From Patescibacteria group bacterium (GTDB lineage Bacteria > Patescibacteriota > Minisyncoccia > Minisyncoccales > Staskawiczbacteraceae), in contig JBBTVX010000001.1 in NCBI GenBank assembly GCA_038063015.1, positions 2,772-66,771 on the forward strand: a stretch of 64,000 nt of DNA, read 5' to 3'. This document shows positions 39,397 to 59,800 of this stretch, in pieces (position 1 is the first letter of the stretch; the number at the start of each line of letters is the position of its first letter). The notes under the pieces were generated by a model. It did not search any database. It was not told the origin of the DNA and saw only the letters and a program-made list of their open reading frames with translations. A program made the position numbers and the translations under genes.

Positions 39397-40322
39397 TGCG
39401 TTGTTTTTAATATTCCCTGTTCCAAATTTATTGTTGGTTTCCAATTTAAAACATCTTCTGCTTTGCTTGAATCGGCGCGCATATTCATTACTTCGGCATG
39501 AGGATGATGGTGCTTAATAAACTTTATTTCTATTTTATCGTCGGCTATCTTTTCTGCTAAATCCTTTATTTTCACCTCTATCCCAGAACCGGCATTAAAA
39601 ATCTGTCCAATCGCTTTATCGCTGAAACAGGCTCTGGCAATAAATTCAGCGCAATCTTCTATATAGAAAAAGTCTCTTCCTTGTTCCCCGTCTCCAAAAA
39701 TCTCTAACGGCTCTCCTTTGAGCTTCTTATTAATAAATATGCTCATTACTCCTCCCTCGGAATCGCTCCTTTGATAAGGACCGTAAATGCTAAACGGCCT
39801 TAGAATAACAACCGGTAAATTATATGTTTTAGAATATGACATTACAAGGTTTTCGCCGTTAATTTTACTGGCTGTATACGGACATGAAGCGTAAAGAGCA
39901 TGCTCTTCCGTTATTTTACGGCCCGGTTCGGCTGTTTTATAAACTAAAGCGGAGCTTGCAAAAACCATTTTTACATTATGTTTTCTGCATTGTTCAAGAA
40001 TGTTAAAGGTGCCCAAACAATTGTCATTAAAGCTTTTTTCCGGATTATCAATGCTCTCCTGCACGTCTATTGCCGCGGCAAAATGAATGCATATATCAAA
40101 ATTATTTTTAAAAAGTTCTGAAACTAATTCTTTATCTTTTATATCTCCTATTATAAAATCCTCTAATTTATCTCTAAATTCTTCGATGTTTTTTTCAGAG
40201 CCGTTTGAAAGGTTGTCTAAAATCCAAATTTTATGTCCTTTATTGAGCAGATTTTTCGCAGTCCAACGGCCCATAAAACCCGCTCCTCCTGTTATTAAAA
40301 TATTTTTAACCTTTATATCCAT
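39378..40322 (-). CDS. NAD-dependent nucleotide-sugar epimerase/dehydratase/reductase (extended SDR)
   Basis: ILITGGAGFMG, ASSALVYK, YTASKINGE (YxxxK). Confidence 0.8.
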   Translation of the reverse strand: MDIKVKNILITGGAGFMGRWTAKNLLNKGHKIWILDNLSNGSEKNIEEFRDKLEDFIIGDIKDKELVSELFKNNFDICIHFAAAIDVQESIDNPEKSFNDNCLGTFNILEQCRKHNVKMVFASSALVYKTAEPGRKITEEHALYASCPYTASKINGENLVMSYSKTYNLPVVILRPFSIYGPYQRSDSEGGVMSIFINKKLKGEPLEIFGDGEQGRDFFYIEDCAEFIARACFSDKAIGQIFNAGSGIEVKIKDLAEKIADDKIEIKFIKHHHPHAEVMNMRADSSKAEDVLNWKPTINLEQGILKTTQWLKFQ

Positions 40323-41727
40323 AATCCCACCAATTTACAGGTAAATTATATTTTTGCATTTTATCTTGAACGGCTTTAAAAGCTTTCTTTTTAAATTCCT
40401 CAATTTCTGGAGCTGTAATATCATAGGGCTCGCCAACGCTGGTATTGCAATCATAAAGCTCCCAGTCCTTATGAAATATCCTATATCTAAATTTTTCTGG
40501 ATTCCTGAATATCTCTGTTCCCGGATTTGGAGCTAACAAATTAAACTCTGCTCTTGAATTTTCCACAATTAATTTAAACGACATCATTTCAAGAAGTTTT
40601 TTAAAATTCTTTTTTACTGTGGTAAAAGTGGCGTCGCAACATTTTAAAGCAATATCAAGCGTCTGCTCAAGGGTTTGTTTTGTTTCTCCTGGAAGCCCCA
40701 AAATAAATCCGGCGTGAAACAGCATTTCGTTTCTCTGAAACATTTCGGCGATTTCTAATATCTTAGACACGGTAATAGCCCTCTTGTTAACTTTCAGAAC
40801 TTCGTCCGAACCCGACTCCATTCCTATATAAAGATTGGTACATCCCGCTTCTTTCAATTTTACAAGAATTTCGTCAGTAATGCCGTCTGGCCTTGTTGCT
40901 GCCCGAAATTGTCCAACATTCTTACTTTTTATTAATTCTAAAACTTGTTTTGTGCGGTCCGGAAATAAGCCCATAAATTCGTCCTCATATCTTATCTCAA
41001 GTTTTGGATTTAACGAAAGAGCAAGCTCTAGCTCTTGCGATATTGTATTCGCGGGACGACAGCGAATTCCTCTTCCGTGCACTGACGGCAATTCGCAAAA
41101 AGCGCAATTATGAGGGCACCCTCGCGTACACATTAAAACAACATAGGCATATTTTTTCATATCAAGCATATCATATGCCGGTATAGGTATTTCTTCGGGA
41201 TTTAACAATGGGCCCATCGGATTATCAATAATTTGGCCGTTTTCTCTAAAACTGATGCCTTGTATTTGAGAAAAAGGTTTGCCTTGTGAAAGCTCAAATA
41301 AAGGACGCTCTCCCTCTCCTCTGACAACAACGTCTACCCATGGACACTCATTTAAGGTTTCGTGAGCCATAAATGTAACATGCACGCCCCCAATTACCAC
41401 TATTGTTTTCGGCTCTGCCTCTTTTACCGCTTTGGCTATTTTCGTTGCGGGAATATACGATATTGTTGTTGATGTTATTCCAACAATGTGCGGTTTAGAG
41501 TCGTTAATATAATATTTTACAACCTGTTGTATCTCGTTTATTGAGCGAGAGAGAAGAGATGGTTTTTCATACTGCATCTGTTTTGTGTCCAAAACATCAA
41601 CTTTTACTCCTGCTTTGCGCAGATAGGCCGCTAAATACATAAGCCCCTTGGGAGGAAACTGCGTCAACCAGTTTATATCCCAGGGTCTTTCTGGAAATGG
41701 CGGGTCTATTAATAAAATATTCAACAT
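40306..41727 (-). CDS. Class B (cobalamin-binding domain) radical SAM enzyme
   Basis: N-terminal B12-binding-like region (HIVGITSTT...VVIGGVHVT) and the radical SAM motif CPHNCAFC. Confidence 0.75.
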   Translation of the reverse strand: MLNILLIDPPFPERPWDINWLTQFPPKGLMYLAAYLRKAGVKVDVLDTKQMQYEKPSLLSRSINEIQQVVKYYINDSKPHIVGITSTTISYIPATKIAKAVKEAEPKTIVVIGGVHVTFMAHETLNECPWVDVVVRGEGERPLFELSQGKPFSQIQGISFRENGQIIDNPMGPLLNPEEIPIPAYDMLDMKKYAYVVLMCTRGCPHNCAFCELPSVHGRGIRCRPANTISQELELALSLNPKLEIRYEDEFMGLFPDRTKQVLELIKSKNVGQFRAATRPDGITDEILVKLKEAGCTNLYIGMESGSDEVLKVNKRAITVSKILEIAEMFQRNEMLFHAGFILGLPGETKQTLEQTLDIALKCCDATFTTVKKNFKKLLEMMSFKLIVENSRAEFNLLAPNPGTEIFRNPEKFRYRIFHKDWELYDCNTSVGEPYDITAPEIEEFKKKAFKAVQDKMQKYNLPVNWWDYGYKG

Positions 41728-42739: not shown

Positions 42740-43834
42740 TTAGCTTATACAACCCAGTCGCTCAAAGGCGCGAGCCAGCTCTTCTGGTGTCGCCTTATGG
42801 GGAATACGCAGTACGCGACAAGGCGCGCCAGACACTGCCTTCTCCAAAATAACGCGAGCGCGCCAAAAATCAGCTCCGAGGTCTTCTAAACCCAAAGACC
42901 CCATTTCAAAAAGTCGCTTAAGGTCGTTTTCAAGCTCTTGGTAGAGAACAGCAAAAATGCGACGGGCCATCCATGTCCCGTTTTGTTCCTCTATTGAGAA
43001 ATCAGGAACATGACATCTAAGAAGCAATATTGTTTTTGTGACAGATCCTTTTGTTCCCAAACATTTTGCATCAAATATTTGTTCAGCGGGCACAATATCT
43101 ACATAGTCTCGGCGGATAAAAGGAATAAAGGCAATTCTATTGTAAACTCCCTTACTCTTGAGAAATTTATCAATAATCCCCCGGAATGGAACGTTAGCGT
43201 AGAGGTTCCATATAATGGAACGAGTGACGCGTTTTTTCAAACTCATGTGTTTGCGAGAAGCGAATAACTCGGGATAAACCGAACTATGATATTCCTTAAG
43301 CACGAATGCTTTATGAAACGCCAAACACATGCCGGATTCTGTGAGCGCTATCATGTCGTCGCCCAGCAGTTTATACCCTTTTTCTTTTACGAGGAAACCA
43401 GAGAGCGCTGTTTTGCCAACTCCTCCGCAACCTGCTAAAATAGTAACGCCTCCCGCGGGGTTTTGCAGGGCAGCCGCATGGGCGAACGAAATGCCGTTAC
43501 TAATAAAAAGTTGTTGAATAAGACCGGTAAAAGAAAACATGGCATCGGTGTATACGGCGTATCCCGTCGGTTTTTTTTCTATTGCCAAGCGAGAGTCGCG
43601 GTTCGCGCACCACGAATCTCTGCCACCTTCTGAATTTTGGAATATCTCGTTTTCTTGAGGAAAAGAAAACATCTCAAAAGGATTAACCAATATCATCAAG
43701 GGGTTAGAATGGTCTTGTTCAGAACTTTTAAAAGACCCCAACTGCCGATTGATTGATTTCAAAACCCACGGACGAATTTTTGGATTGACGCGCACGGTTA
43801 TAAGATCGTGAATGTGGTATACGTGTTCATTCAT
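42740..43834 (-). CDS. HprK-like P-loop protein (uncharacterised), compositionally atypical
   Basis: LAGCGGVGKTALSG followed by LLGDDMIAL resembles the HPr-kinase C-terminal-domain Walker-A plus GDD arrangement. The N-terminal 130 aa give no call. GC is visibly higher than in neighbouring genes. Confidence 0.4.
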   Translation of the reverse strand: MNEHVYHIHDLITVRVNPKIRPWVLKSINRQLGSFKSSEQDHSNPLMILVNPFEMFSFPQENEIFQNSEGGRDSWCANRDSRLAIEKKPTGYAVYTDAMFSFTGLIQQLFISNGISFAHAAALQNPAGGVTILAGCGGVGKTALSGFLVKEKGYKLLGDDMIALTESGMCLAFHKAFVLKEYHSSVYPELFASRKHMSLKKRVTRSIIWNLYANVPFRGIIDKFLKSKGVYNRIAFIPFIRRDYVDIVPAEQIFDAKCLGTKGSVTKTILLLRCHVPDFSIEEQNGTWMARRIFAVLYQELENDLKRLFEMGSLGLEDLGADFWRARVILEKAVSGAPCRVLRIPHKATPEELARAFERLGCIS

Positions 43835-43840
43835 AAAAAA

Positions 43841-44089
43841 TTACCACTTTTCAATGGCTTCTCTGGTTTTATTTTTTAATTTTTTGTAAACTTTAAAAAC
43901 GTTCAGCTCCAATTTTGGAGAAATAAGCTTCAAAATTTCATCGCCCCAAATCCTATATTGACCGGAAACTTTATAAGCTTCTATTATGCCGCTCTTTATC
44001 ATTCTTTTCATTGTGCTGTCGCTAACTTTTAAGAAGTCGCGGGCCTCTTTTGGCGTATAAACTTTCCCTGGCTTAATTTCTTCTACCAT
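43841..44089 (-). CDS. Small helix-turn-helix DNA-binding protein (excisionase/MerR-like HTH_17 type)
   Basis: 82 aa with YTPKEARDFLKVSDSTMKRMIKSGIIEAYKVSGQYRI. Confidence 0.6.
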   Translation of the reverse strand: MVEEIKPGKVYTPKEARDFLKVSDSTMKRMIKSGIIEAYKVSGQYRIWGDEILKLISPKLELNVFKVYKKLKNKTREAIEKW

Positions 44090-44095
44090 GATTTA

Positions 44096-44124
44096 ATGAT
44101 AAACCCCCCTTAACTTAATGTCAA
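44096..44124 (-). promoter_or_regulatory. Sigma-70-like promoter predicted to give a leaderless mRNA for the HTH gene
   Basis: The minus strand reads TTGACA (44124-44119), a 17-nt spacer, TATCAT (44101-44096), then 6 nt to the ATG at 44089. AT-rich background makes chance matches possible. Confidence 0.4.
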
Positions 44125-44160
44125 GAGAGGTCAAAAAGTATCATTTGAATAGTAGTTTGG

Positions 44161-44724
44161 TTAAGTTTGAACAGGAACGATGCTGTTTGCTTTTGCTTTA
44201 AACTTTTTTTTAATTAAAATCGTCGCCGCTTCATAAGCGCCGAAAAAAGCGCCTACATAAAATAAGTCTCCCAATAATGTATTTCTGAAAAACGGCAAAG
44301 CCATAATATAAGACTGAATTATTCCAGAAAAAGTTTTGGCATACCAGGGAGAAAAAGCCCAGACCGCGAAATTAGTAATAAGAAAAAACAAAACAGAAGA
44401 CAAAATTGCGGCTCCCGCAACTGTCTGCCATTTTTTGCGCTTTTTTAGCCAAAAACCCAAAATTGTACATAAAATAAAACTCCCATAAACCGCAGTCATT
44501 ATTTTTAAGTCATAAAAACCAATAAATACATCGGAAATCAACATTGCCAAAACTGGCAAAAAAAGAGCTATTTTTTTAGAAAAATAAACTCCGCCAAATA
44601 GAGCAATAGCGGCTATGGGCGTAAAATTAGGAGCGTGGGGAATAATCCTCAAACTAACTCCTATTAGAATAAAAAATAAAGCGATAATAAACTCTAAAAT
44701 TTTTCCGTTTTTTGAGATTTCCAT
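44161..44724 (-). CDS. Small polytopic membrane protein (DUF6580-like), candidate cobalamin transporter / ECF-S-like component
   Basis: 187 aa with about 6 TM segments and the IPHAPNFTPIAAIALFGG motif. It is the last gene of the riboswitch-controlled operon. Function is inferred from context. Confidence 0.4.
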   Translation of the reverse strand: MEISKNGKILEFIIALFFILIGVSLRIIPHAPNFTPIAAIALFGGVYFSKKIALFLPVLAMLISDVFIGFYDLKIMTAVYGSFILCTILGFWLKKRKKWQTVAGAAILSSVLFFLITNFAVWAFSPWYAKTFSGIIQSYIMALPFFRNTLLGDLFYVGAFFGAYEAATILIKKKFKAKANSIVPVQT

Positions 44725-44747
44725 AGATTTATTGATTAGTTTTAATA

Positions 44748-45209
44748 TTAAAATTGCGATTTTTCAAATTTGAATTCAATTTTGTCTCCGGATTTTATAA
44801 TCATCTTGTCTGCGGAAACCATAGGCGTTTCCCCATTGATATAGTATAGCCAATATTTTCCGCCTTGTCCATTTTCTTTGTCTCCGATTGCTTCGATCAT
44901 AATTCCTATATCATAGGTTTTGGTTTTCAAAACCATGTTTAATTCTTCTGTTTTATTTTTTAATAAATCAAAGGCGGTCTCTCCTTCAACAAATTCAACT
45001 TCAAAGGTTTTTGGTTCTTTTTCTCCATCGTTAATTGTCAGCTTCGCTTTTTTTTCTGCTTCTACTGCTTTTGATTTTGCCGTTTTTAAAACATTGCTAT
45101 TTTCCCTTTCTTCAACACCGAGCTGCGATGAATTATTAGAAAACAACAGCCAACTGCCAACAATAATAATTATTCCCAAACCAACTATGATATAAATATT
45201 TTTTTTCAT
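44748..45209 (-). CDS. Secreted/anchored DUF4430 (transcobalamin beta-domain-like) protein
   Basis: N-terminal TM/signal segment. C-terminus has ETAFDLLKNK...GGKYWLYYINGETPMVSADKMIIKSGDKIEFKF, typical of DUF4430. Confidence 0.65.
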   Translation of the reverse strand: MKKNIYIIVGLGIIIIVGSWLLFSNNSSQLGVEERENSNVLKTAKSKAVEAEKKAKLTINDGEKEPKTFEVEFVEGETAFDLLKNKTEELNMVLKTKTYDIGIMIEAIGDKENGQGGKYWLYYINGETPMVSADKMIIKSGDKIEFKFEKSQF

Positions 45210-45211
45210 TT

Positions 45212-45751
45212 TTAAAGTTTCGCTTTTTTATTTTTTCCTATTAAAAGACCGAAAAGAATTAAAATTAAGATAACGCCAAAAATATAAATTAAACTTTGCT
45301 GATTTTTAAATAATCCCTTAAAATTTTCTAAGACAGATGCCATCCAAAAATTAGACTTTTTTTCCGAAACTCTGACCTCTATAGGGATTTTTACGCCAGC
45401 ATTGGCTTTAAATTCTCTTTCGGATAAGGGTTTGGCCACCACTGAAATCGTGGTAAAGAAAACTCCTGTTTCTTTGCTTTCAATTTCTAAAATTGCTTTT
45501 TGAGACTTTTTGGCTTCCAAAATAAAGCTTTCCGGTTTTATTTTAACCCAATCAGAAAAATTATCAAGATAAACTTCAAGTAAGGCCACGTTGTCTCCCG
45601 GATTTTCTATTGTTATTTCTTTTTTAGTTAAACTTGCGCTGGTTTCAATTTTTATCTCCGAAGGGCTTACTTTAATTGATACCGCCTCAACAGAATTAGC
45701 GGTTAAAAAAGAAATTATTATTAATATTAAAATTAACAGATTTTTTTTCAT
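45212..45751 (-). CDS. Secreted beta-rich protein with C-terminal TM anchor (unknown function)
   Basis: Signal peptide MKKNLLILILIIISFLTANSVEA and C-terminal IYIFGVILILILFGLLIGKNKK. ATG 45751 forms an ATGA overlap with the upstream stop. The track start 45766 is a TTG. Confidence 0.5.
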   Translation of the reverse strand: MKKNLLILILIIISFLTANSVEAVSIKVSPSEIKIETSASLTKKEITIENPGDNVALLEVYLDNFSDWVKIKPESFILEAKKSQKAILEIESKETGVFFTTISVVAKPLSEREFKANAGVKIPIEVRVSEKKSNFWMASVLENFKGLFKNQQSLIYIFGVILILILFGLLIGKNKKAKL

Positions 45752-47562
45752 TTTTTGATTGCCCAAAAAGTAAGCTCTCCCTGCATTAAACCAAAATCTC
45801 CATTATAGTTTAAGGGTATGCTTAATTTAACCGGCAAAATTTTACTTTGACTTTTCTCTATTTCAGCAGAGAAAATTCGCCAAGATTGCCCCTCTATATC
45901 TAAATTATCCCGAAAAATATTAGCCCCGCCAACCTCTGTTTCTAAATAAATTCCACTATCTTTGTTGTTAATGGTTAAATTTTGAGCAGAATTTCCTCCT
46001 GGTTTCAATTTTCCAAAATCCAACATATCCGGACTCACTGAAAAACTAATTCCGTCTTGGTCTCCCCCTGGTAAAACCTTAATTTTTTCAATTTCCACTT
46101 TTAACCCTACCTGATGGCTTGCAGGAGCTTCGCCTGCTGTTAAATTTACTTTTTTGCTTCTAATATAACCTATTTCGTTTATAATCTGGTTTTCAACAAA
46201 TATCTGATGAAAGCCCCCCTCTAATCCGTCTAAAGAAACCTTAACCTTGCCAAAATTATCTGTTATTAATTCCGAAAGTCCGATTTTCACCTTTATCCCT
46301 TCTTTTTCTAAGTTTTGCCAACTACTTATTTCAGGATTATAGTATTTAACCTGAACTTCGGCTGAATCCTCGGTTTTAGTAAGCGCTATCTTGGTTTGAA
46401 ACCAACCTTTTTCCAGCCACTCTCCGGTAAACCACAAAACTTCGTCTCCGGATTCTAAATAATAACTGTCTGCTCCTATTGTGGGAGAAATATTGTTTAC
46501 CATATACATCCAGCTGTCCTGGCCGTTTATTTTTGCCAAATAAAAACCCATTCCAGGGTATTCGCTGATTAAATAATCGTAATTACATGTTTCAGAGCCA
46601 TTAATTATCAAATCCAAAGCAGTTGCTCCGCTTATTCTTCTGTCGCAAATGGTGCTGTCTTTACCTTCAATTCTTAAATATTTTAGATTAGAATCTGTTG
46701 AAACCGGGTAAAACTTTTTTGATAAAGCGATTAAAGCATATGAACTGCAAGATTTGTTGTCCCCTTCAGACTGCCACCAAAAACCTCCGTCTGCGTCTTG
46801 CAAGGAAATAAGATGATTAAGGGGATTTTTCCCGTTTTTCACCCAATTTGAACTAATGGGCCCCTGACCCAATTTATAAATAGCTGAAATTATCCAAGCG
46901 TCGGAACAGGAATCGGAAGGAGACGCCGCAGAATAAGGAAACCCTCCGTCGTCATTCTGCTGAGATTTCAAATAATTAATCGCGTTCTGGACAGCAGATG
47001 AAGAAGGGAAAACTCCCGCCTCTAACAAAGCCATAATGGCCGACGCCGTGTCATTAGTGTCAGAAGAGGAAGAAATATTATAACTCCATCCGCCGTCTGA
47101 ATTTTGATGGTTCAAAATATAATTTTTAGCGTCTTGAACCATTACTGAATTTCCTTGGCCAACCGAACCCAATGCCGAAATCGCCCAAATATCATCATTG
47201 ATTAAATCTTTATCGCCGAATTGGCTATCTTGATAAAAACTTTTAAGTTTCTCTACATAATTTTCACTCCCAAAATTAACAGGACTTTTGCCGGCTGCCG
47301 TTAAAGCCAAAATATACTTGGCGTAAGTGGCAATGGATTCTTGTCCGGAAGGAATAGATTTAAGATAATCTAAACTGGCTTCAGTTTCTCCCGCCCCGGC
47401 TAAGGCCATAGTATTCCAAGCGGTTTGAGGCTGAGATTTAATATAATTAACAACTTTATCAATTTCTGATTGGTTTTCCGCCTTAATTTCAAAAAAATTG
47501 CTAAATCCAATCAAACCGGCTGAAATCACAGCTAAAAAAACTATTAAAATTTTCTTTTTCAT
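45748..47562 (-). CDS. Secreted alpha/alpha-toroid (prenyltransferase/squalene-cyclase repeat) plus DUF4430 plus Ig-like-tail protein; candidate extracellular cobalamin binder
   Basis: Signal peptide. Repeats are DGGWSYN...DTASAIMAL, DDGGFPYS...DAWIISAI and ADGGFWWQ...SSYALIAL. Then YPGMGFYLAKINGQDSWMYMVNNISPTIGADSYYLESGDEVLWF (DUF4430). Confidence 0.6.
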   Translation of the reverse strand: MKKKILIVFLAVISAGLIGFSNFFEIKAENQSEIDKVVNYIKSQPQTAWNTMALAGAGETEASLDYLKSIPSGQESIATYAKYILALTAAGKSPVNFGSENYVEKLKSFYQDSQFGDKDLINDDIWAISALGSVGQGNSVMVQDAKNYILNHQNSDGGWSYNISSSSDTNDTASAIMALLEAGVFPSSSAVQNAINYLKSQQNDDGGFPYSAASPSDSCSDAWIISAIYKLGQGPISSNWVKNGKNPLNHLISLQDADGGFWWQSEGDNKSCSSYALIALSKKFYPVSTDSNLKYLRIEGKDSTICDRRISGATALDLIINGSETCNYDYLISEYPGMGFYLAKINGQDSWMYMVNNISPTIGADSYYLESGDEVLWFTGEWLEKGWFQTKIALTKTEDSAEVQVKYYNPEISSWQNLEKEGIKVKIGLSELITDNFGKVKVSLDGLEGGFHQIFVENQIINEIGYIRSKKVNLTAGEAPASHQVGLKVEIEKIKVLPGGDQDGISFSVSPDMLDFGKLKPGGNSAQNLTINNKDSGIYLETEVGGANIFRDNLDIEGQSWRIFSAEIEKSQSKILPVKLSIPLNYNGDFGLMQGELTFWAIKK

Positions 47563-47565
47563 AAA

Positions 47566-47802
47566 AAAAAATCCCTTTTCGAGAGGGAAAGTTTGCCTAA
47601 TCTAAAAATTAGACGCTCTTTTCTTTGCTCGAAGAAAGTTAAGTTAATTATAATTATTAAAAATTAATGGTATTCTGGCTTTACCCTGTTAAATAGCGCT
47701 TTGCGCTAATTTCACGAAGTGAAATTATTTAACTGGGTTTACAGTTGCGGCACAGCCCCGGACTTTCCCGCTAAAGCGGAATCACCGGTGTTTCCCATTT
47801 AT
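47566..47802 (-). ncRNA. Cobalamin (B12) riboswitch with expression platform
   Basis: The minus-strand RNA reads GGGAAACACCGGUGAUUCC...GGGGCUGUGCCGCAACUGUAA...AAGCCAGAAUACC (B12-box-like), matching the conserved cobalamin-aptamer core. It ends in UCCCU-CUCGAAA-AGGGA plus U9 directly abutting the AUG at 47562. That hairpin can act as a terminator or sequester the AAGGGA ribosome-binding site. Confidence 0.75.
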
Positions 47803-47808
47803 TTATTT

Positions 47809-47836
47809 ATTTTATCTTTTTTTACAAAGCTGTCAA
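47809..47836 (-). promoter_or_regulatory. Sigma-70-like promoter for the riboswitch leader
   Basis: The minus strand reads TTGACA (47836-47831), a 16-nt spacer and TAAAAT (47814-47809). It lies in the last codons and stop region of the upstream radical SAM gene. Confidence 0.35.
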
Positions 47837-49798
47837 TACTCTCATCTTATTTTTGAGCATATCCACGCCGCCTGTTTCTAAAAATTGGACAATATTTTTT
47901 GAAGATAAGTCTTTTTTTCCGTCTGGGCTTAAATGAAGCCTGCAAAAAGAAACAAATTCTTGAGGCCGATAAATTTCTAATTCAATGACATCTTTGTTGG
48001 CAAATTTGGGGTCGCCAGTTATAATTGAAATAATCTCGCCCGGATATTTTTTAATTATTTTTTTCTCGTCTTCCAAAAAATCTTTACAAATTAAAAGGTC
48101 TGAAAGTTCAATTATATTATTCATAACAACCTGGTTAAAAATATTTTTCAATCTGAGTTTTTCGGTTGCAATGGTTTCTATTTCTTTTTGTAAAGCTTCA
48201 ATAATTTTTAAATCTTGATACGCTAATGCGACATAAAAAAGATTTAATTTTATAAAAGTATTAACCAAATTGTTAAAATTTTCTGGTTGCTCGTAGAAAA
48301 AAATCATTTCTTCTTTTGTTTCAAACCATTCTTCCATAGATTCTTTTTTTATACGGTCAAAAAAATTTCTCAAAATAGAATTTTTGGTCCGAGAAAGCTC
48401 ATCTATAATTATTTCCGGATTAATTCCTTGTTTTTTAGCTAATAAAAAAACTGGTTTAAATATACCCATATTCCAATTAAAAAGAATAAGCCAGTGATGA
48501 ATTTTAAAGTTGTTCAATTCTTCCTCTGACATATCTTTTGTGGCTCTTACAGACTCTTCTATCTCAAATACTATCCTATTATCGTATTTGCCATAAGCGC
48601 CGAAAATCGGCCTGTATTTAGTTTTGACTCCATATTGTTGGCGATATTCATCGCTTTCATATTTTGTGCCTTGCAAGAGCGTAATATTTAACATGCTGAT
48701 ATAATCAAACCCCATATCAAAAGCGGATGCGAGAGTATTATAGTGGCTCTTCGCGCTCTCGCCTGGCAATCCTATAAGAATATCTGTTCGCACCTCAAGA
48801 TTTTTTTTGTGGAAGTAATTAAGCTGTTCCGTTATGCCGCTCATTTTTATGGCGCCCCTGCCAATATTATCAAGAACTTTCGGGTCCGCCGATTGTATGG
48901 CAATTAATCCTTTATTATTTTCTCCTAAAATTTCTGAAATTTCTATGTTTCGGCTAACCGTGTTTTTTGACTGCCAAACAGTTACATCTGCGGGGTATCC
49001 TTTTTTATCCATAACTTCACGCACTTTTTTTGCAATTTCCAAGTCTCTTGGCAAGATTCCGAAATTACTGTCGCAAAATATCCAAGCAGGCTGACCTGCT
49101 GATTTCTCAGCTATGTATTCAATTTCTTTTAAGACCTGGTCAAGCGGCCTTATTCTTATTTTTGAAAGCATCGTCCCCCAGGCGCAATAAACGCACCGAA
49201 AGGGACATCCTCTATTAGTTTCTATAAGAGGAATCATATTAGGGTCGGCCAAAAATTGGTCTAGCCATCCCGTAAGGTATGGACTCGGCTGGTTTATTTC
49301 CATACTTTTTTGGTCAGGCGGTTTTGGGGCATAAAAAAACTCTCCGTCAATAATAACGGCGCAGCCTGAAGGATGCGGCTTGACGCATCCTCCCAAAATT
49401 TCGCTTATAATTTTTGCAAAAGTTTCCTCGCCTTCGTTTATTATGCAATAATCAAGATTTTTATGATTAGTGAGAAATTTTTCAATATCGGCTGGCTCTG
49501 TCCTAATGTTTGGTCCGCCCATTGCTGTTAATGTTTTGGAATTTAAACGTTTGACCATATCTAAAAAAAGAAAATCAAGTCTCTCGTTCCAACTGTAATG
49601 GCTCAAAGCTAAAATGTCCGGAGGGTTTTCAAGAAGAGCTTTTTCAAGAACATCCGGATATTTAAAAAGTTTAATATTAACTTCCGACCCGAATTTTTCT
49701 TTAAGAAATGATGCCACATACCCTATGTTTAAAGGCACGACGTAATCTGTCTTAACGGTGTTGTATACTAAGTCGGCAAGATATATGTTTATAGCCAT
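47822..49798 (-). CDS. Class B (cobalamin-binding domain) radical SAM enzyme, large form (658 aa)
   Basis: N-terminal B12-binding-like region (DILALSHYSWN...AMGGPN), the motif NRGCPFRCVYCAWG, and a C-terminal helical extension of about 250 aa. Confidence 0.75.
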   Translation of the reverse strand: MAINIYLADLVYNTVKTDYVVPLNIGYVASFLKEKFGSEVNIKLFKYPDVLEKALLENPPDILALSHYSWNERLDFLFLDMVKRLNSKTLTAMGGPNIRTEPADIEKFLTNHKNLDYCIINEGEETFAKIISEILGGCVKPHPSGCAVIIDGEFFYAPKPPDQKSMEINQPSPYLTGWLDQFLADPNMIPLIETNRGCPFRCVYCAWGTMLSKIRIRPLDQVLKEIEYIAEKSAGQPAWIFCDSNFGILPRDLEIAKKVREVMDKKGYPADVTVWQSKNTVSRNIEISEILGENNKGLIAIQSADPKVLDNIGRGAIKMSGITEQLNYFHKKNLEVRTDILIGLPGESAKSHYNTLASAFDMGFDYISMLNITLLQGTKYESDEYRQQYGVKTKYRPIFGAYGKYDNRIVFEIEESVRATKDMSEEELNNFKIHHWLILFNWNMGIFKPVFLLAKKQGINPEIIIDELSRTKNSILRNFFDRIKKESMEEWFETKEEMIFFYEQPENFNNLVNTFIKLNLFYVALAYQDLKIIEALQKEIETIATEKLRLKNIFNQVVMNNIIELSDLLICKDFLEDEKKIIKKYPGEIISIITGDPKFANKDVIELEIYRPQEFVSFCRLHLSPDGKKDLSSKNIVQFLETGGVDMLKNKMRVLTAL

Positions 49799-49799
49799 A

Positions 49800-51473
49800 T
49801 TAAGATTTAAGAAACTGATTGAAATCTTTTATAATTGGATTATCCCAAGATAAATACTTAGAAAAAGTTTCGGAAAGCTCTTCGTCTTTGAAAAGATTTT
49901 TGGCTATATTATAATGCTCTTCATATTCAGAATAACAATTTTTTTGCTTATAAATGTGCCCCATAACTAAATGCAGAATGATGTGTTCCGGCATTGCCAG
50001 TGAAAAATCTTTGAAAAATTTCAAAAGTTCGTCTCGCCCGTCCGCGGTTTCAAGAGAGGGATTATTAAGAAAATTCATCTCAATATTGGCATCATATATA
50101 ATTGCCTGCAGTTGATTGTAATTCCATTGGTCTGATTTTAAATAGTCGCATCGCCGATTATCAAATTTATCTAAATTGTCTTCGGGGAAAACTAATAAAT
50201 CAGCGCTCTTTGCCTCGTCAAACATCTGTGTTCCGGGATAAGGCAAAACGGTGGCAAATTGGTTCCAATTAGCTTTTAACTCGCGGGCGAAACTAAAAGT
50301 GCTGTTAATTTGAGCCATCGTTTCATTCGGAAATCCCACCATCCAGCAAATGCTAACATGAACGCCGTGAGATTTCATCATTTTTACCACCTCTCTTACT
50401 TTATCAAAATTCAGAAATTTATTGATGCGTTTTTGCATCTCGGGAGAACCCGACTCAACGGCTATGGCAAACTTGCTCATACCCGCCTCAATTAATAAAC
50501 TTACTATTTCTTCGTCTAAATGCTTGACTGAAAAATTTAAAACCTTTAGCTCCAGGGGCAACTTCATGTTTATTATTCTGGTCAAAAAATCCTTAATCCA
50601 GTCTTTGGAGAAAGAAAGATTATCGTCTGTAAAATATAAAGTTTTAACACCATTGTATCTTTTTTTTATTTCTAATATCTCTTTTATCAAATTTTCAACC
50701 GGCTTGTAGCGAATCTGTCCGCCCCAAAAAAGAAAAGTTGTGCAATAATAACAACGATACGGACAGCCCCTGCTTCCTTCTGTCGGCAACGCGCTGTCCC
50801 CGCTCTTTTTGAAATACTCCTCTATATTTAAATAATTCCAAGCCGGCATTGGCAAGTCGCTTAAGTTAATAAAATTACACCCTCCTTTGACAATATTAAT
50901 TTCTCCTTTTTCATTTTTTGTCGCATATGACCCGGAAGGAAATTTTTTATCAAATTCAGCGTCTTGATGATTATTGTATTTATTAAGAATATGTAAAAAA
51001 GTGGTTTCCCCTTCTCCTATTATCGCGTCATCAATATCATATTTTGTCAGGCATCTCTCGGGAAAAAGGGTAGAATATCCCCCGCCGATAATTATTTTTG
51101 CTTCAGGATGAAATTTTCTTGATAATTTCACGGCATCGTCAACCCACCTTTCATTAAAAACATACATCACCGACAGAGATAAAACATCGTAATCGTTATT
51201 CTGAATAACTTCAGCTAACAAATTGGGAAAAACAGATGTGTCTACCGGAATTTCAGGTTCGGTATAAGCCTCTAAATTTAAATCTACGGCTTTTATTTTA
51301 TAATCGCAGGTTTTATATTTATCCACAAAAGCGCACAATACCGGCAAAGCCAAAGTGGGAATTGGTCTAAACGGGTTTTTAGTTCTGAAGCTATCTTCGC
51401 TCGGAGTGTCCGGATGGGAACACATAGGAAGCTTTAAAAGAAAGATTGATTTAAATTGTTTTTTTTCCGTCAT
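49800..51473 (-). CDS. Class B (cobalamin-binding domain) radical SAM enzyme (557 aa)
   Basis: DVLSLSVMYVF...IIGGGYST B12-binding-like region, SRGCPYRCYYCTT, and a C-terminal helical extension. Confidence 0.75.
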   Translation of the reverse strand: MTEKKQFKSIFLLKLPMCSHPDTPSEDSFRTKNPFRPIPTLALPVLCAFVDKYKTCDYKIKAVDLNLEAYTEPEIPVDTSVFPNLLAEVIQNNDYDVLSLSVMYVFNERWVDDAVKLSRKFHPEAKIIIGGGYSTLFPERCLTKYDIDDAIIGEGETTFLHILNKYNNHQDAEFDKKFPSGSYATKNEKGEINIVKGGCNFINLSDLPMPAWNYLNIEEYFKKSGDSALPTEGSRGCPYRCYYCTTFLFWGGQIRYKPVENLIKEILEIKKRYNGVKTLYFTDDNLSFSKDWIKDFLTRIINMKLPLELKVLNFSVKHLDEEIVSLLIEAGMSKFAIAVESGSPEMQKRINKFLNFDKVREVVKMMKSHGVHVSICWMVGFPNETMAQINSTFSFARELKANWNQFATVLPYPGTQMFDEAKSADLLVFPEDNLDKFDNRRCDYLKSDQWNYNQLQAIIYDANIEMNFLNNPSLETADGRDELLKFFKDFSLAMPEHIILHLVMGHIYKQKNCYSEYEEHYNIAKNLFKDEELSETFSKYLSWDNPIIKDFNQFLKS

Positions 51474-55248: not shown

Positions 55249-56616
55249 ATGAAAATGGAAATAAAAAATTTAATAAAAAAACAAATAAGAGAAATACAGG
55301 ATTGGCCAAAATCAGGCATTAGCTTTAAAGACATAACCCCCCTGCTTGAAAATAAAAAACTTTTTTCCAAAACGATTGACGAACTGGCAAAACCCTATTT
55401 AAACCAAAGAATTGACAAAATTGTCGGCATAGACGCAAGGGGTTTTTTATTGGCTTCCGCTATGGCTTATAAATTAAAAACAGGAATTGCCATTATAAGA
55501 AAACAGGGAAAACTTCCGTCAAAAACAGTTTCTAAAAAATATGCTTTAGAATACGGCAGTAATACCATTGAAATGCATCAAGACTCTATTTTGCCCGGAG
55601 AAAAAGTCTTGCTGATTGACGATGTTTTAGCCACTGGCGGCACAATGAAAGCCGCCGTTGACTTGGTAAAAGAGCTTGGTGGAAAAATAATCGGCATTGA
55701 TTTTTTAATTGAGCTTTCCTACCTAAATGGAAAAAAAATCCTCAAAGGACAAAAAATAAAGTCTTTAATAAAATATAATTCTGTAAGCAATCCGCCAGCC
55801 AACGGAAAACCGCAAAAAAAATTAGCGGAAATCGGAATAATCGGCGGCTCCGGGTTTTATGAATTTTTTAAGGGCGGGGCAAGGGAAATTGATATTGAAA
55901 CAGAGTTCGGAAAACCTTCAGATAAAATTACCATAGGAAAGATATCTGGAAAAACAGTGGCTTTTTTGCCAAGGCATGGAAAAAATCATCAAATTCCGCC
56001 TCATAAAATAAATTACAGGGCAAATATCTCTGCCTTGAAACAAATCGGCGTTGAAAAAATTATCGCCCCTTCGGCTGTGGGCTCGTTAAAACAAAACATT
56101 AAGCCGGGCGACTTTGTAATTTGCGACCAATTCATTGACAGAACTAAAAAAAGAGAGGACACTTTTTTTGACGGACCCAAAGTAGCCCACATTGAAAGCG
56201 CTTTTCCCTACTGCCAGGATTTAAGAAAAATCGCTGTCTTGCAGGCAAAAAAATTGGGGCTAAAAACGCATTCAAAAGGAACCGCTGTTGTTGTTGAAGG
56301 TCCGAAGTTTTCAACTGCGGCGGAAAGCGCTTATTTTTCTAAAATAGGAGCCGATGTTATAAATATGACTCAATATCCCGAGGTGATTTTGGCGCTGGAA
56401 ATGGGCATGTGTTATTTAAACATTTCTTTGGTTACTGATTACGACGCCGGAATATACGCTAAAACAAAAATTGAACCGGTCTCAATTGAACAAGTTCTGG
56501 CAAATTTTAAAAACAACAACGAAAAATTAAAAAATTTGATATTGAAAATCATAAAAAACATTCCAGACAAAACCTCCTGCGACTGCCAAAAAAAAGCGGA
56601 AAGAGCCGTTATGTAA
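55249..56616 (+). CDS. apt-mtnP: Fusion: adenine phosphoribosyltransferase plus S-methyl-5'-thioadenosine phosphorylase
   Basis: N-terminal half has DWPKSGISFKDITPLL and VLLIDDVLATGGTMKAA (the PRPP motif). C-terminal half has IGIIGGSGFYEF, FLPRHGKNHQIPPHKINYRANI and INMTQYPEV (MTAP/PNP family). The linker is near nt 55780-55830. Confidence 0.85.
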   Translation: MKMEIKNLIKKQIREIQDWPKSGISFKDITPLLENKKLFSKTIDELAKPYLNQRIDKIVGIDARGFLLASAMAYKLKTGIAIIRKQGKLPSKTVSKKYALEYGSNTIEMHQDSILPGEKVLLIDDVLATGGTMKAAVDLVKELGGKIIGIDFLIELSYLNGKKILKGQKIKSLIKYNSVSNPPANGKPQKKLAEIGIIGGSGFYEFFKGGAREIDIETEFGKPSDKITIGKISGKTVAFLPRHGKNHQIPPHKINYRANISALKQIGVEKIIAPSAVGSLKQNIKPGDFVICDQFIDRTKKREDTFFDGPKVAHIESAFPYCQDLRKIAVLQAKKLGLKTHSKGTAVVVEGPKFSTAAESAYFSKIGADVINMTQYPEVILALEMGMCYLNISLVTDYDAGIYAKTKIEPVSIEQVLANFKNNNEKLKNLILKIIKNIPDKTSCDCQKKAERAVM

Positions 56617-56682
56617 TTGATTACCGCTGATTGCTGGCTGATTAACACTGATAAAATATTAAAATACGAATTAAGCTTAAAT

Positions 56683-56722
56683 CGATGTCCGACCTCGCAA
56701 AGCTTTGCGAGGTCGGACATCG
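56683..56722. repeat. Perfect 40-bp GC-rich palindrome (20-bp arms, no spacer) in the convergent intergenic region
   Basis: cgatgtccgacctcgcaaag / ctttgcgaggtcggacatcg, centred on aagctt. Confidence 0.9.
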
Positions 56723-56751
56723 CCGTAACTCATCAGTGGAAATCAGCAAAC

Positions 56752-56776
56752 AAAAAACCCCTTTCGGGGTTTTTTG
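56752..56776. terminator. Bidirectional intrinsic terminator
   Basis: aaaaaacccc-tttc-ggggtttttt. A G/C stem is flanked by an A-run and a T-run. It lies between the stops of the convergent genes at 56616 (+) and 56829 (-). Confidence 0.8.
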
Positions 56777-56828
56777 TTTTCATCCCTTCAGCTCTTTCAC
56801 AAGAAGAGCAAGGGTTTTATTCAAGAAA

Positions 56829-59800
56829 TTATCTCAACCAAGTCTCTGAATTTAAGATAGATTCTAACAGATAGCTGTTTGTCCAGTCTTTATCTGAACT
56901 TGTGCCAACTGTACCGTTCGCAGGAGCATGGCCAACAGCTGACATATCAGACCAAATCATAGTTGCCTCTTCGGCATCACCAGTTGCTGCTGCGGCTGAA
57001 TCGTGCAAGCCGATTATACCAAGTGAAGCATTAGCGTTCAGATATGTATGGGAAGCTGTCTGGGCCGCTGTGTCTCTGCTGAATACCACAGAAACCGAGT
57101 CAACTCCAGCCGTATCGCCTGAGCCTGTACCGGTTCTGAATTGTTCCGGAGTTCCTTTTATTGTGTAGGTAACTTCACCGCCAGATAGAATTGTATCAGC
57201 GGTATTACCATCCCAAGCAACAACAATTGTGCTGTCGTTCTCGGAAACTCCTGAAGATGATCCTTCGACTGAAAGACCGTCTTCGTTCAGAATTGACACA
57301 GAACTTGTGATATCTAATCCATTCTTCTCAAGCTTCAAGTTGCCAAGTCCTAATTGGGCCACAGTTCCTCCATCAGACCATGAAACAGCTAACTTAAACT
57401 GCTTCATTGTAATATCGCCTTTGTCAGCTTTGGCTTTGAACGAATATACGCTCTGTTCTGCGCCGTTAGACATATAGGTGCTGTTATTTAAGTCGTTCAA
57501 CGTAAGCACTGGAACGGCTTTGTAAACAAGCGTGGTGTTTCCAGCAGCTGTTGTAAAGGTGGTGTCAGTGGTTACTGTCCCGTTCGGGTCCTGCCTCTTA
57601 ACATGAGTTAAGGTTGGCTTTACGTCAACATTTGAAGAACTGGCTGTAGCTGATATGCCGGGTGACAATGTATAGGCAATTGTTACGGTCTTTGAAGTAG
57701 AAGCGGGAATCACAATGTTTAAACCGGTAAAGTAGAACCTGTCATTTGCTGTATCATAAGGAATTGTTTTTAACACAGTGCCTGAAGCATCTTTAAGCGA
57801 AGCTGAAACAACAGCTTGGGCAATTGTGTCTGAACCCATAGAGAACCTCATTTCTGTCACAGTGTATTGCTGATAAGAAGAGGTCATCACGTAATTTGCA
57901 ACATCAACTGTTTGATTACCGGCAGCCACCTGATTCAAAGGAGAGCTAGAAGATGTTGTTGTGAAGCTCCCCGTACTAAAGGCAATGTTTTGCCCGTCAA
58001 CCGTTCCAGAAGTGTCAGCCGATGTAGCTGAGCTGACAGTTGTTCCGTCAATGTCAACTGTAGCATACGCTGTGCCGGCCGCTGATGAACTAAAGTCTGC
58101 ATAAACCATTATGTCAATGGTGTTGCCGGCTGGCAATGTGTGGTTGATTGACCATGAGTCGCTGGTTGAAACTGTTGGCTTTATAGTTGTTGTTTTGTCT
58201 CCATATACAACATACAAATTGCTTCCGTATGAAGAAGCCACTGAGTTCAAAGCAACATTAATAGCTGTTACATTAACCGATTCTGTTGTGTTAGCTGTTA
58301 ATGTAAAGTGAGCTAATTTGTGAGCTGTCAATGGAGCAACAACTGTCTGGTCTGTGTAAGCAGGGTATTTTGACAACGTCAAAGCCCCTGTTGCCACAGT
58401 CAAAGTGTTGCCATTGGTGGCAGCTGAAGGCGCGCTTAAGCTTGCCAAAGATACCGTGCCCTGGGCATTGCTTGAACCTGCAATAATACTAACTTGCAGG
58501 GTATCGGTAGCATCAATATCGTTATAAGTGCCAGTTGCGTCGTAGATATCGCCTTTTACTTCTAAAGTAACAGGCGAACCCGGCGTAACGATTAAAGATG
58601 AACCTGGGCTAAATAGTGTTCCGGCGGCAACAGGCGAAATTGCTGTTGTGCTGCCGATTTGGACGCCATTAGCCAATACCATACCACTTCTTAATAACAT
58701 GCTTGCCGCATCAGTACATACAGTACTGGCGGCGGTACAATTATCTGTTCCAGTTACGTTAGTAAATATGATTCTAACGTACAAGCTTTCAACTTTTACA
58801 GGTTCTCCGGCGGCAGTAAGGGTGTATTTAGCTAATGTTGCATTTGGGGCAGTGTTAACTATATCGCCAGATGGAGAAGTGGATTGCTTGGTAAAAGTCA
58901 AAGTTCCCGAAGCTACTGTCTGAACACCGGATGTTACATCGGCTACTGTAAAGCTTCCAGTAGTGGTTGCTGTTGTTGGCGCTGTGTTGACATTATATTG
59001 TGTATCAACAAAGTTAGCGTCAGCGGATACTGATACTCTAAACTTAAAGTTTAAGCTTGATCCGCCAATAATATCAGCCACTAACTTAATAACTCTTGTG
59101 CCTGCCTCCATTCTCTTTGGGCTAGCAGATAAATCAAAAGTCACATAACCATTCTCGCCATCTAAATTAGCTACAGCAGAACCAACCTGGACTCCGTCAA
59201 CATAAAGACGAAAGTTTTGAAGGTCGGTTTTCTTAACAGAGCCAATCTCCCTGAAAGCAATACGGGTGAAGTCAACGGCTCTGGTAGAAATAACAACGCT
59301 GTTTTGCCAAACCGTGTAATCGTTCTGGGGAGTTAAGCTGGTATTTGTTGATGGTGTCGTGGTGGCCGCAAACTCAACTCCAGCTCCAGTGGCAGTTGCC
59401 GCTGTCATTAGATTTCCGTTAATTGGATATGTTCCCTTAACAGAACTGGCGTTGGTGGTTACACTAGTAGAAGCGTTGATAGCGGCCCCTACTGTTTGAC
59501 CAGCAGAAGCGGCTAAATCAGCGGCTACTGTGATTGTTGTTGAACCGCCAGATGGAACTGTAAATAGTCCGGATGCGTCATTGAAAGTAATTACACCAGA
59601 TGAAACGCTGGCTGCATCAGTTAATCTTTTTGCTCCATTGAACAAATATACATTTGCCAAGGTAGCATCAAGAGAAACACCAATTCTATTTACTTTTAAA
59701 TTGGTAACTTTTACTTCTGCGTTATCGCCGTTAGTAAAAGTGAATTTAGCCAATGGGGCCAAACCCTGCGCCAATATAACTGTTCCAGAGGCTGGATTAT

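Follow-up and report, generated by a model that had tools for sequence, protein, structure and literature searches.

The 64-kb window analyzed here (64,000 nucleotides (nt) of contig JBBTVX010000001.1 from a Patescibacteria group bacterium; all coordinates are those of this window) carries four consecutive genes on the minus strand behind a 259-nt leader, and we interpret them as a probable uptake and scavenging operon for corrinoids (vitamin B12) in a bacterium of the Patescibacteria, or candidate phyla radiation (CPR), repressed by a cobalamin riboswitch. Gene 1 (45748–47562) encodes a secreted protein of 604 amino acids (aa), which we characterized by Pfam, AlphaFold2, Foldseek and profile search. 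Its stop codon overlaps the start codon of gene 2 in the sequence ATGA. Gene 2 (45212–45751) encodes a product of ~179 aa when read from its ATG, in which a signal peptide and a beta-rich domain precede a C-terminal membrane anchor. Gene 3 (44748–45209; 153 aa), which starts 2 nt past the end of gene 2, encodes a DUF4430/SLBB domain joined by a charged linker to an N-terminal membrane anchor, and gene 4 (44161–44724; 187 aa) encodes a DUF6580 membrane protein with a predicted fold like that of the S components of energy-coupling factor (ECF) transporters. The leader lies between gene 1 and an upstream radical S-adenosylmethionine (SAM) gene (47822–49798). An earlier note, made from the letters of the DNA, had described this layout, and its parts are all present: a 259-nt gap holding a cobalamin-aptamer core and a hairpin plus U9 that runs into the start codon; a 604-aa protein joining a toroid to DUF4430, both of which Pfam finds; a second protein with a signal peptide and a membrane anchor, seen here as a C-terminal hydrophobic segment; a further DUF4430 protein of 153 aa (Pfam 1.6e-14); and a small membrane protein resembling an S component, which Pfam places in DUF6580 and for which its fold and a borderline profile match to CbrT speak.

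A sigma-70-like promoter (47809–47836, minus strand; TTGACA, a 16-nt spacer and TAAAAT) matches at 11 of 12 positions and is the best match within 43700–48000. The stop codon of the upstream radical SAM gene falls inside its spacer, and the TTGA and the −10 block are conserved across the orthologous leaders. Read along the minus strand, the leader presents GGGAAACACCGGUG, UCCGGGGCUGUGCCGCAACUGUAA and AAGCCAGAAUACC in that order, followed by the hairpin UCCCUCUCGAAAAGGGA, nine U residues and the AUG. A putative cobalamin aptamer of family RF00174 occupies 47647–47835 (minus strand), comprising a GGGAA/GGUG/UCC core, GCCGCAACUGUAA, the B12 box AAGCCAGAAUACC and a P6-type extension. With the leader aligned to the family model, the GGGAA/GGUG element, GCCGCAACUG and the B12 box AGCCAGAAnACC are all visible.

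Taken alone, the window copy is a weak member of its family. No Rfam match was found in the 64-kb window at the curated cut-offs; a permissive scan of 47400–47950 returned a full-length match to RF00174 at the coordinates given above, with an expectation value (E) of 2.7e-5 and a score of 28.1 bits, below the cut-off of 31.5. The cobalamin-aptamer assignment of the earlier note is thus borne out by RF00174 as to length and E, and falls short as to score. Two further observations weigh in the same direction. The riboswitch was not detectable at three close loci that carry the DUF4430-DUF6580 gene pair (L002, L005 and L008), and among 18 more distant homologues of the 604-aa gene only four are preceded by an aptamer that reaches the Rfam cut-off.

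Comparison with related leaders changes this picture. We fetched eight loci with close homologues of the 604-aa protein (53–72% identity), together with others from a scan of a genome collection. In 7 of 9 scanned loci the orthologous gene has an aptamer of the cobalamin clan immediately upstream, which bears out the expectation that related operons would also stand behind B12 riboswitches, and six of the nine leaders score above their family cut-offs (34.8–63.6 bits). In an alignment of 13 leaders, the core is invariant or nearly so in the 11 close ones. Searched against 1.4 Mb of fetched DNA, a strict two-part core pattern gave 25 matches on the gene strand and none on the other. This pattern misses the G+C-richer aptamers of diderm loci; it also finds the aptamers of loci L161 and L162, so that all 11 closely alignable leaders carry one. 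We used it in place of a covariance model of our own because MAFFT misaligned the 5' half of the CPR-type aptamers between variants with and without an inserted hairpin.

Base pairs were counted across the 13 leaders on stems specified by hand, since RNAalifold recovered only 11 pairs; the stems counted exclude P1 and the P6 extension, neither of which could be aligned. Of all cells, 87% are paired, and 8 of 17 pairs change on both sides. None of 500 shuffles reached the observed pairing values, and slid controls were 41–60% paired. One aptamer stem (columns 150–153/184–187) covaries, with two of its four pairs changed on both sides. Because the orthologous leaders share the same core, mostly score above the cut-off and have covarying stems, comparative sequence evidence supports a genuine cobalamin aptamer in the window, though it is sub-threshold on its own. 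The window leader shares with the riboswitches of clan CL00101 (RF00174, RF01482 and RF01689) the core, the B12 box, the stems and a position before B12 transport genes; it differs from them in scoring below the cut-off, in being A+U-rich and in having a lineage-specific, conserved expression platform with a UUCGAGCAA loop motif.

The leaders of this one gene are themselves diverse. Those of L161–L168, L007 and L017 fall, between them, under these three different Rfam models; the P6-type extension is present in some orthologous leaders and absent from others, and the same holds for an additional hairpin within the GGUG...UCC loop. The match of three models among leaders of one gene suggests that ligand preference may differ between close relatives.

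The expression platform downstream of the aptamer is built from two hairpins. Hairpin 1 (47620–47637, minus strand; UUUCUU-CGAGCA-AAGAAA) bears the near-invariant UUCGAGCAA loop motif and covaries, with four of its five pairs showing changes on both sides across the 13 leaders. The second element, found by a terminator scan (47563–47588, minus strand; UCCCUCUCGAAAAGGGA), consists of a hairpin at 47572–47588 followed by U9 and is a candidate terminator or sequestrator of the ribosome-binding site. Its hairpin covaries in the orthologues (for example, UCUCAC/GUGAGA and CCCGCC/GGCGGG). The 3' arm, AAGGGA (or GGAGA), is likely the Shine-Dalgarno sequence, 9 nt before the AUG, and the element may therefore be able to act on both transcription and translation. 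The terminator loop, CUCGAA, can pair with UUCGAG in hairpin 1. When the platform is folded on its own, its minimum-energy structure contains this long-range helix, which is 91% paired across the leaders and which we infer to be an antiterminator. Several results count against this switch: the terminator stem is short (5 pairs); the UUCGAG/CUCGAA helix shows no covariation across the leaders, which we ascribe to its bases hardly varying; and the platform folds no better than shuffled sequence (z-score −0.71). A kissing loop between UUCGAGCAA and the aptamer was considered and rejected, as no complement was found in the aptamer by eye and the complement lies in the terminator loop. The UUCGAGCAA hairpin (alignment A3, columns 347–362) follows CPR cobalamin aptamers even where different genes lie downstream, and it is also seen at L014 and L029.

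The 604-aa product of gene 1 consists of a signal peptide, an alpha/alpha toroid (~30–292), a DUF4430/SLBB beta-grasp domain (~293–380) and two immunoglobulin (Ig)-like domains (~387–476 and ~507–603), an architecture common to hundreds of CPR homologues. Pfam assigns SQHop_cyclase_C/Prenyltrans to residues 125–280 and DUF4430 to residues 338–377, and by profile the C-terminal domain resembles ASH/Ig domains. The AlphaFold2 model, built with 35 homologues (mean predicted local distance difference test score, pLDDT, of 84), displays a signal helix, a helical barrel (31–280), a mixed beta domain (293–380) and two beta-sandwich domains. When this model was compared to the PDB with Foldseek, ranks 1–14 were all transcobalamin, haptocorrin or intrinsic factor (rat, human and bovine), aligned over 408–447 columns that cover both domains and approximately the whole target chains (E of 8e-10 to 1e-8; target-normalized TM-score of 0.39–0.46). 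The next ranks are terpene cyclases and prenyltransferase beta subunits, which align over the barrel only (~280–320 columns). The predicted fold thus agrees with the two-domain, transcobalamin-like clamp that had been proposed for this protein, and the transcobalamin family, with its alpha6/alpha6 barrel and beta domain, provides its best PDB matches.

The likeness has clear limits, and these weigh against a close kinship with transcobalamin. Superposition on transcobalamin gives a root-mean-square deviation (rmsd) of ~23 Å, which we attribute to the two domains being placed differently with respect to each other in the ligand-free model. By sequence profile the toroid is nearest to squalene-hopene cyclase repeats (E 4e-21) rather than transcobalamin; the weak transcobalamin sequence match (E 0.04) comes from the beta domain only; and no match to Pfam Cobalamin_bind (PF01122) was found at E up to 0.1. 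Identity to the transcobalamin family is only 12–16%, and the two Ig-like domains are additional to it. Three larger toroid proteins that adjoin DUF6580 genes in other CPR loci do match Cobalamin_bind. The 604-aa protein hence combines transcobalamin architecture and a transcobalamin-type beta domain with a barrel whose sequence belongs to the cyclase/prenyltransferase superfamily, and the structural model supports its prediction as a transcobalamin-like corrinoid binder.

The profile affinity of the toroid invites a wholly different explanation, in which the protein is a surface enzyme of the terpene-cyclase or prenyltransferase type, or a glycan binder, and the B12-like leader stands before it by chance; the sub-threshold score of the aptamer and the location of the operon within a glycan biosynthesis cluster would suit such a role. 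We give this explanation very little credence, because 11 leaders have the aptamer at the orthologous position, conserved and with covariation, and because both domains are covered by matches to the transcobalamin family only. An enzymatic role as a terpene cyclase was rejected for the toroid, which is a single barrel fused to DUF4430, stands under a riboswitch and is secreted away from isoprenoid diphosphates.

The architecture of this clamp holds up as a structural match and is less new than had been implied: the transcobalamin-like reading was anticipated in 2007, when Burroughs, Balaji, Iyer and Aravind defined the transcobalamin-type beta domain as the SLBB superfamily and described secreted bacterial fusions of SLBB with an alpha/alpha toroid (PMC1796856). 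The same Firmicute operons contain a second SLBB paralogue and CbiO- and CbiQ-like genes, their hosts are without B12 synthesis, and those authors proposed B12 scavenging by these operons and a transfer of the toroid plus SLBB architecture from bacteria to animals (PMC1796856). The window operon resembles the Firmicute operons in its signal-peptide toroid and beta-grasp protein, its second SLBB paralogue and its predicted role in B12 scavenging. Unlike them, it lacks an ATPase and a T component of its own, its toroid/SLBB protein is fused to two Ig-like domains and accompanied by a tail-anchored partner, and its host is a CPR bacterium.

The tail-anchored partner is the product of gene 2. This protein (~179–184 aa) matches no Pfam family and gives weak hints of the Ig type only; it has a signal peptide, a C-terminal hydrophobic anchor and a beta-rich domain that is probably Ig-like. 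In each of the eight close loci, the 604-aa gene is followed by a gene of this kind, even where the other two genes are missing. Thus, the set splits into two modules: the 604-aa gene and its ~180-aa partner always occur together, and the DUF4430-DUF6580 pair is sometimes found elsewhere. The full four-gene set is present at L007, L010, L017, L065, L161, L162, L163 and L166.

The second module is best understood by comparison with ECF-CbrT, the vitamin B12 transporter of Lactobacillus delbrueckii (PDB code 6FNP; PMC5997447), whose gene cluster reads nrdJ-cbrS-cbrT-pduO. A contig with a CbrT orthologue reads nrdJ-DUF4430-DUF4430-cbrT-pduO, and since cbrT is directly preceded by the DUF4430 genes, what was published as ‘cbrS’ is a DUF4430 protein. 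The original CbrT/CbrS prediction is reportedly that of Rodionov et al. in 2009. By analogy, the gene 3 protein (Pfam DUF4430, 1.6e-14) is the counterpart of CbrS. As in the window, a small six-helix membrane protein is encoded after DUF4430 genes, in an order that matches genes 3 and 4; adenosyltransferase and NrdJ genes are common neighbors of both CbrT and DUF6580, and the proposed function, B12 uptake in a B12 auxotroph, is the same. DUF6580 differs in being a separate Pfam family with no ECF module seen near it, and the window operon has in addition the fused transcobalamin-like protein, its anchor partner and the riboswitch; no riboswitch was found at the one cbrT locus examined. At L169/L170 (5001–5542), the CbrT orthologue is split into open reading frames (ORFs) of 135 and 53 aa, and the occurrence of the 135-aa form on dozens of contigs suggests that it may be either a recurrent frameshift or a real truncated form.

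Gene 4 encodes a clear member of DUF6580 (Pfam, 2.5e-53) and matches neither PF12822 nor PF07155. NCBI labels its relatives ‘DUF6580 family putative transport protein’, and our literature search found no paper that mentions DUF6580. The AlphaFold2 model (pLDDT 84) contains seven helices, and its best four PDB matches by Foldseek are S components, RibU and FolT (TM-score of 0.47–0.57, probability 0.96). A 32-member DUF6580 profile, compared to PDB sequences, gave a sole match at E up to 10, namely chain 6fnp_A, which we identify as CbrT because it belongs to Pfam ECF_trnsprt. Alignment of DUF6580 with a CbrT-family alignment by hhalign gave a probability of 76% and E of 2.2e-5 over 103 columns. 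This CbrT alignment (A5) is partial, as the 88-residue query fragment returned only truncated proteins, and the result therefore covers CbrT helices 1–4 only. Within the aligned region, P-N-x-x-P is the most conserved motif of both families. The strength of these matches calls for caution: the Foldseek E values are only 0.3–0.5, the match to 6fnp_A (E 0.006) is borderline, and so is the hhalign result. Distant homology of DUF6580 to CbrT is, on these sequence comparisons, likely but not proven; the fold and the borderline profile match to CbrT together support DUF6580 as a candidate corrinoid translocator of S-component-like character. The earlier note had called the component BtuM/CbrT-like. 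The comparison with CbrT survives as a borderline match, and that with BtuM fails in sequence, since BtuM (6FFV) did not match the DUF6580 profile even at E of 10. BtuM of Thiobacillus denitrificans is likewise a small, S-component-like membrane protein without an ECF module; besides the missing sequence similarity, DUF6580 differs from it in having no invariant cysteine as a cobalt ligand, for the 32-sequence alignment contains no invariant or nearly invariant cysteine. Residues that are invariant in DUF6580 are His30, Asp65, Tyr71, Trp92, Asn118 and Glu165.

A natural fusion also bears on the gene pair. In P0311 (337 aa), DUF6580 is followed by an extra membrane helix and then by DUF4430, which argues that the two proteins work together and fits a cytoplasmic C-terminus for DUF6580, as in S components. 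The family is large (5,860 clusters at 50% identity), and we surveyed 80 of its loci by the genome-collection scan. These are mostly from CPR bacteria, with others labeled Bacteroidota, Ignavibacteria, Chlorobiaceae, Omnitrophota, Planctomycetes and Rokubacteria. Home-made profiles showed that in most CPR loci DUF6580 is directly preceded by a small DUF4430 gene. Among 117 same-strand neighbors at the 80 loci, a Pfam census counted DUF4430 (28), PduO-type adenosyltransferase (12), TonB-dependent receptor (7–8), radical SAM (4), class II ribonucleotide reductase NrdJ (3), Cobalamin_bind of the eukaryotic type (3), BtuR (2) and BtuF-type binding proteins (2); ABC_tran and CbiQ are both missing from the 25 commonest neighbor families. 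The neighbors of DUF6580 across the 80 loci are B12 genes. Cobalamin riboswitches at the Rfam cut-offs were detected in 7 of 11 and in 4 of 20 scanned DUF6580 loci. In diderm phyla, DUF6580 adjoins a TonB-dependent receptor in all seven loci examined, and all five diderm loci scanned have a cobalamin riboswitch (L030, L033, L074, L077 and L078). At L030 (5688–9911), in a Bacteroidota metagenome-assembled genome, the order is riboswitch, DUF6580, second riboswitch, TonB-dependent receptor and a DUF5074/NHL protein. The survey also passed a group I intron in a tRNA gene cluster (L021, 3132–3364) and a DUF3800-V RNA (L046, 64–159), each near a DUF6580 locus.

These neighborhoods bear on what is carried. 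Instead of cobalamin, the substrate might be a different tetrapyrrole or a precursor of corrinoids (heme, cobinamide or another cobamide). Heme uptake was proposed for the related Lactobacillus sakei operon Lsa1836–1840, in which the alpha-like and beta-like proteins are encoded separately, beside a full ECF transporter (bioRxiv 10.1101/864751), and ECF-CbrT also carries cobinamide (PMC5997447); the spread of the orthologous leaders over three Rfam cobalamin models, with or without the P6 extension, would also allow a different ligand. Such a substrate seems improbable to us, given that the operon stands under a riboswitch of the cobalamin clan, that the neighbors of DUF6580 are specific to B12 (PduO, BtuR, NrdJ and B12-radical SAM), that the heme role in L. 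sakei was derived from docking, and that hemin was no competitor in the CbrT transport assay (PMC5997447).

They also bear on whether DUF6580 transports at all. It might serve as a receptor or anchor for the DUF4430 protein, or as a corrinoid processor such as a decyanase, with transport left to another component: BtuM unites binding with decyanation chemistry (PMC6072759), the fold match of DUF6580 is not statistically significant, and at L075 DUF6580 is directly preceded by a gene for a periplasmic binding protein of the BtuF type, so that a classical ATP-binding cassette (ABC) importer may coexist there. The chance of this is small in our estimate. Without an invariant cysteine in the family, chemistry of the BtuM type is unlikely; most CPR loci encode no other membrane protein beside the pair; and the proteins that DUF6580 matches in fold and profile are transport subunits. 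We therefore retain a translocator role for DUF6580 in the discussion of energy coupling that follows.

No ABC ATPase was found when the window's ORFs of 50 aa or more were all screened for Walker A and LSGGQ-type motifs. Apart from DUF6580, the multi-helix membrane proteins of the window are limited to two Wzx-type flippases, a Wzy-type ligase and a 520-aa protein, the last without a Pfam match. By the same kind of motif screen, an ABC ATPase lies within 6 kb of DUF6580 at only 1 of the 80 loci. The absence of an energizing module, as first described, hence holds for the 64-kb window and for the 6 kb on either side of DUF6580 at 79 of 80 loci; that the component is solitary can only be inferred, because the EcfAA'T module of group II ECF systems is typically encoded far from the S-component genes (PMC5997447).

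This arrangement allows the same B12 uptake to be ATP-driven, with DUF6580 as a group II-type S component on a shared EcfA/EcfA'/EcfT module encoded elsewhere in the genome, of which 64 kb is visible here. Genes for group II S components are typically scattered from their module, and CbrT, the closest characterized relative of DUF6580, is inactive without it, showing no B12 uptake (PMC5997447), which tells against transport by DUF6580 alone; cbrT itself also has no adjacent ATPase. In the other direction point the near-absence of ABC ATPases from the 80 loci, with ABC_tran and CbiQ missing from the commonest neighbors, and the frequent position of DUF6580 beside BtuB-like receptors in diderms, which is the setting of the module-independent BtuM (PMC6072759). 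This resemblance to BtuM, next to riboswitch-controlled BtuB-like receptors, is seen in the diderm homologues and not in the window itself. A minor argument comes from helix 1, in which, by eye, DUF6580 has no AxxxA where CbrT has ALLTA; this argument is weak. Its relevance lies in the part that AxxxA plays in S-component docking. We regard a shared module as less likely than not.

Our working view is instead that transport may proceed without a dedicated ATPase, as for BtuM, for which the lack of ATPases across loci, the BtuB adjacency in diderm phyla and the apparent lack of AxxxA in helix 1 can be cited. In its widest form, this view would make DUF6580 a third and very widespread family of importers that bring B12 across the membrane, distantly descended from CbrT-type S components and free of an ATPase, served by a transcobalamin-like capture relay at the surface in CPR bacteria and fed by BtuB elsewhere (in Bacteroidota, Chlorobiota, Ignavibacteriota, Omnitrophota and Planctomycetota). 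We put this forward tentatively, with more reserve than conviction.

The setting of the operon indicates where the vitamin may be used. The G+C content of the window is 31–43%, and its protein homologues come from Patescibacteria/CPR assemblies, which supports a Patescibacteria-type host and agrees with the small-genome organism anticipated earlier. Four genes for radical SAM enzymes with a B12-binding domain, which had likewise been pointed out, were located in the window (27958–29580, 40306–41727, 47822–49798 and 49800–51473, all on the minus strand), and two of them lie directly upstream of the riboswitch. The operon is embedded in a ~50-kb co-directional surface-glycan cluster with Wzx-type flippases, DegT aminotransferases, cytidylyltransferases and a Wzy/TPR protein. 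Thus, the B12 need of this organism seems tied to radical SAM tailoring of glycans.

We propose the following model for the locus. Transcription would start from the sigma-70-like promoter, which reaches into the end of the upstream gene. When the aptamer holds its ligand, hairpin 1 and the terminator hairpin would form, so that transcription stops at U9 and the Shine-Dalgarno sequence is buried; without ligand, UUCGAG of hairpin 1 would pair with the CUCGAA loop of the terminator to make an antiterminator, allowing expression of the operon. The secreted 604-aa protein may then clamp a corrinoid between its toroid and its DUF4430/SLBB domain, in the manner of transcobalamin, with its Ig-like tail presumably tethered at the membrane by the tail-anchored product of gene 2. 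The membrane-anchored, CbrS-like DUF4430 protein would hand the ligand to the DUF6580 protein, which is our suggested order of transfer, and DUF6580 would move it across the membrane. The imported B12 could supply the four B12-dependent radical SAM enzymes of the surface-glycan cluster.

Other features of the window stand apart from this model. A small HTH_17 gene (43841–44089, and 44096–44124, minus strand) lies 3' of the operon, as it does in L161 and L162 and not in L163 or L166; it was rejected as a fifth member of the operon on account of its own promoter match (11 of 12 positions) and its absence from the latter two loci. On the plus strand, 55249–56616 encodes a 455-aa protein in which a phosphoribosyltransferase domain is fused to a PNP_UDP_1 nucleoside phosphorylase domain. 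The G+C content rises to 43% over 56001–60000, compared to ~34% elsewhere, across a gene for an 1169-aa protein whose sole Pfam match is a peptidoglycan-binding domain.

Among microbes, the producers of B12 are few and its users many, and CPR bacteria are extreme auxotrophs with few recognizable transporters. To our knowledge, the route by which B12 crosses the inner membrane is still unknown in many lineages. Our literature searches found no work on cobalamin riboswitches in Patescibacteria or on ECF transporters in CPR bacteria. Three elements appear to be new: the assignment of DUF6580, as a CbrT-like membrane component, to the B12 regulon; the CPR arrangement of four genes, with a fused clamp, a dedicated anchor and no ATPase nearby; and the lineage-specific, conserved expression platform of the riboswitch.

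The locus unites a sensor RNA, a transcobalamin-shaped surface binder predicted from its modeled fold, a CbrS-like shuttle and a membrane family of unknown function, to which the gene-neighborhood data give a specific and directly testable role. It offers a deep-branching bacterial example for the proposed bacterial origin of animal transcobalamin, and it links the apparent B12 demand of this organism to the radical SAM tailoring of its surface glycans. If DUF6580 does work without an ATPase, this would explain the B12 supply of many B12-dependent organisms that have neither BtuFCD nor ECF-CbrT, and would provide a compact bacterial model for the transcobalamin clamp.

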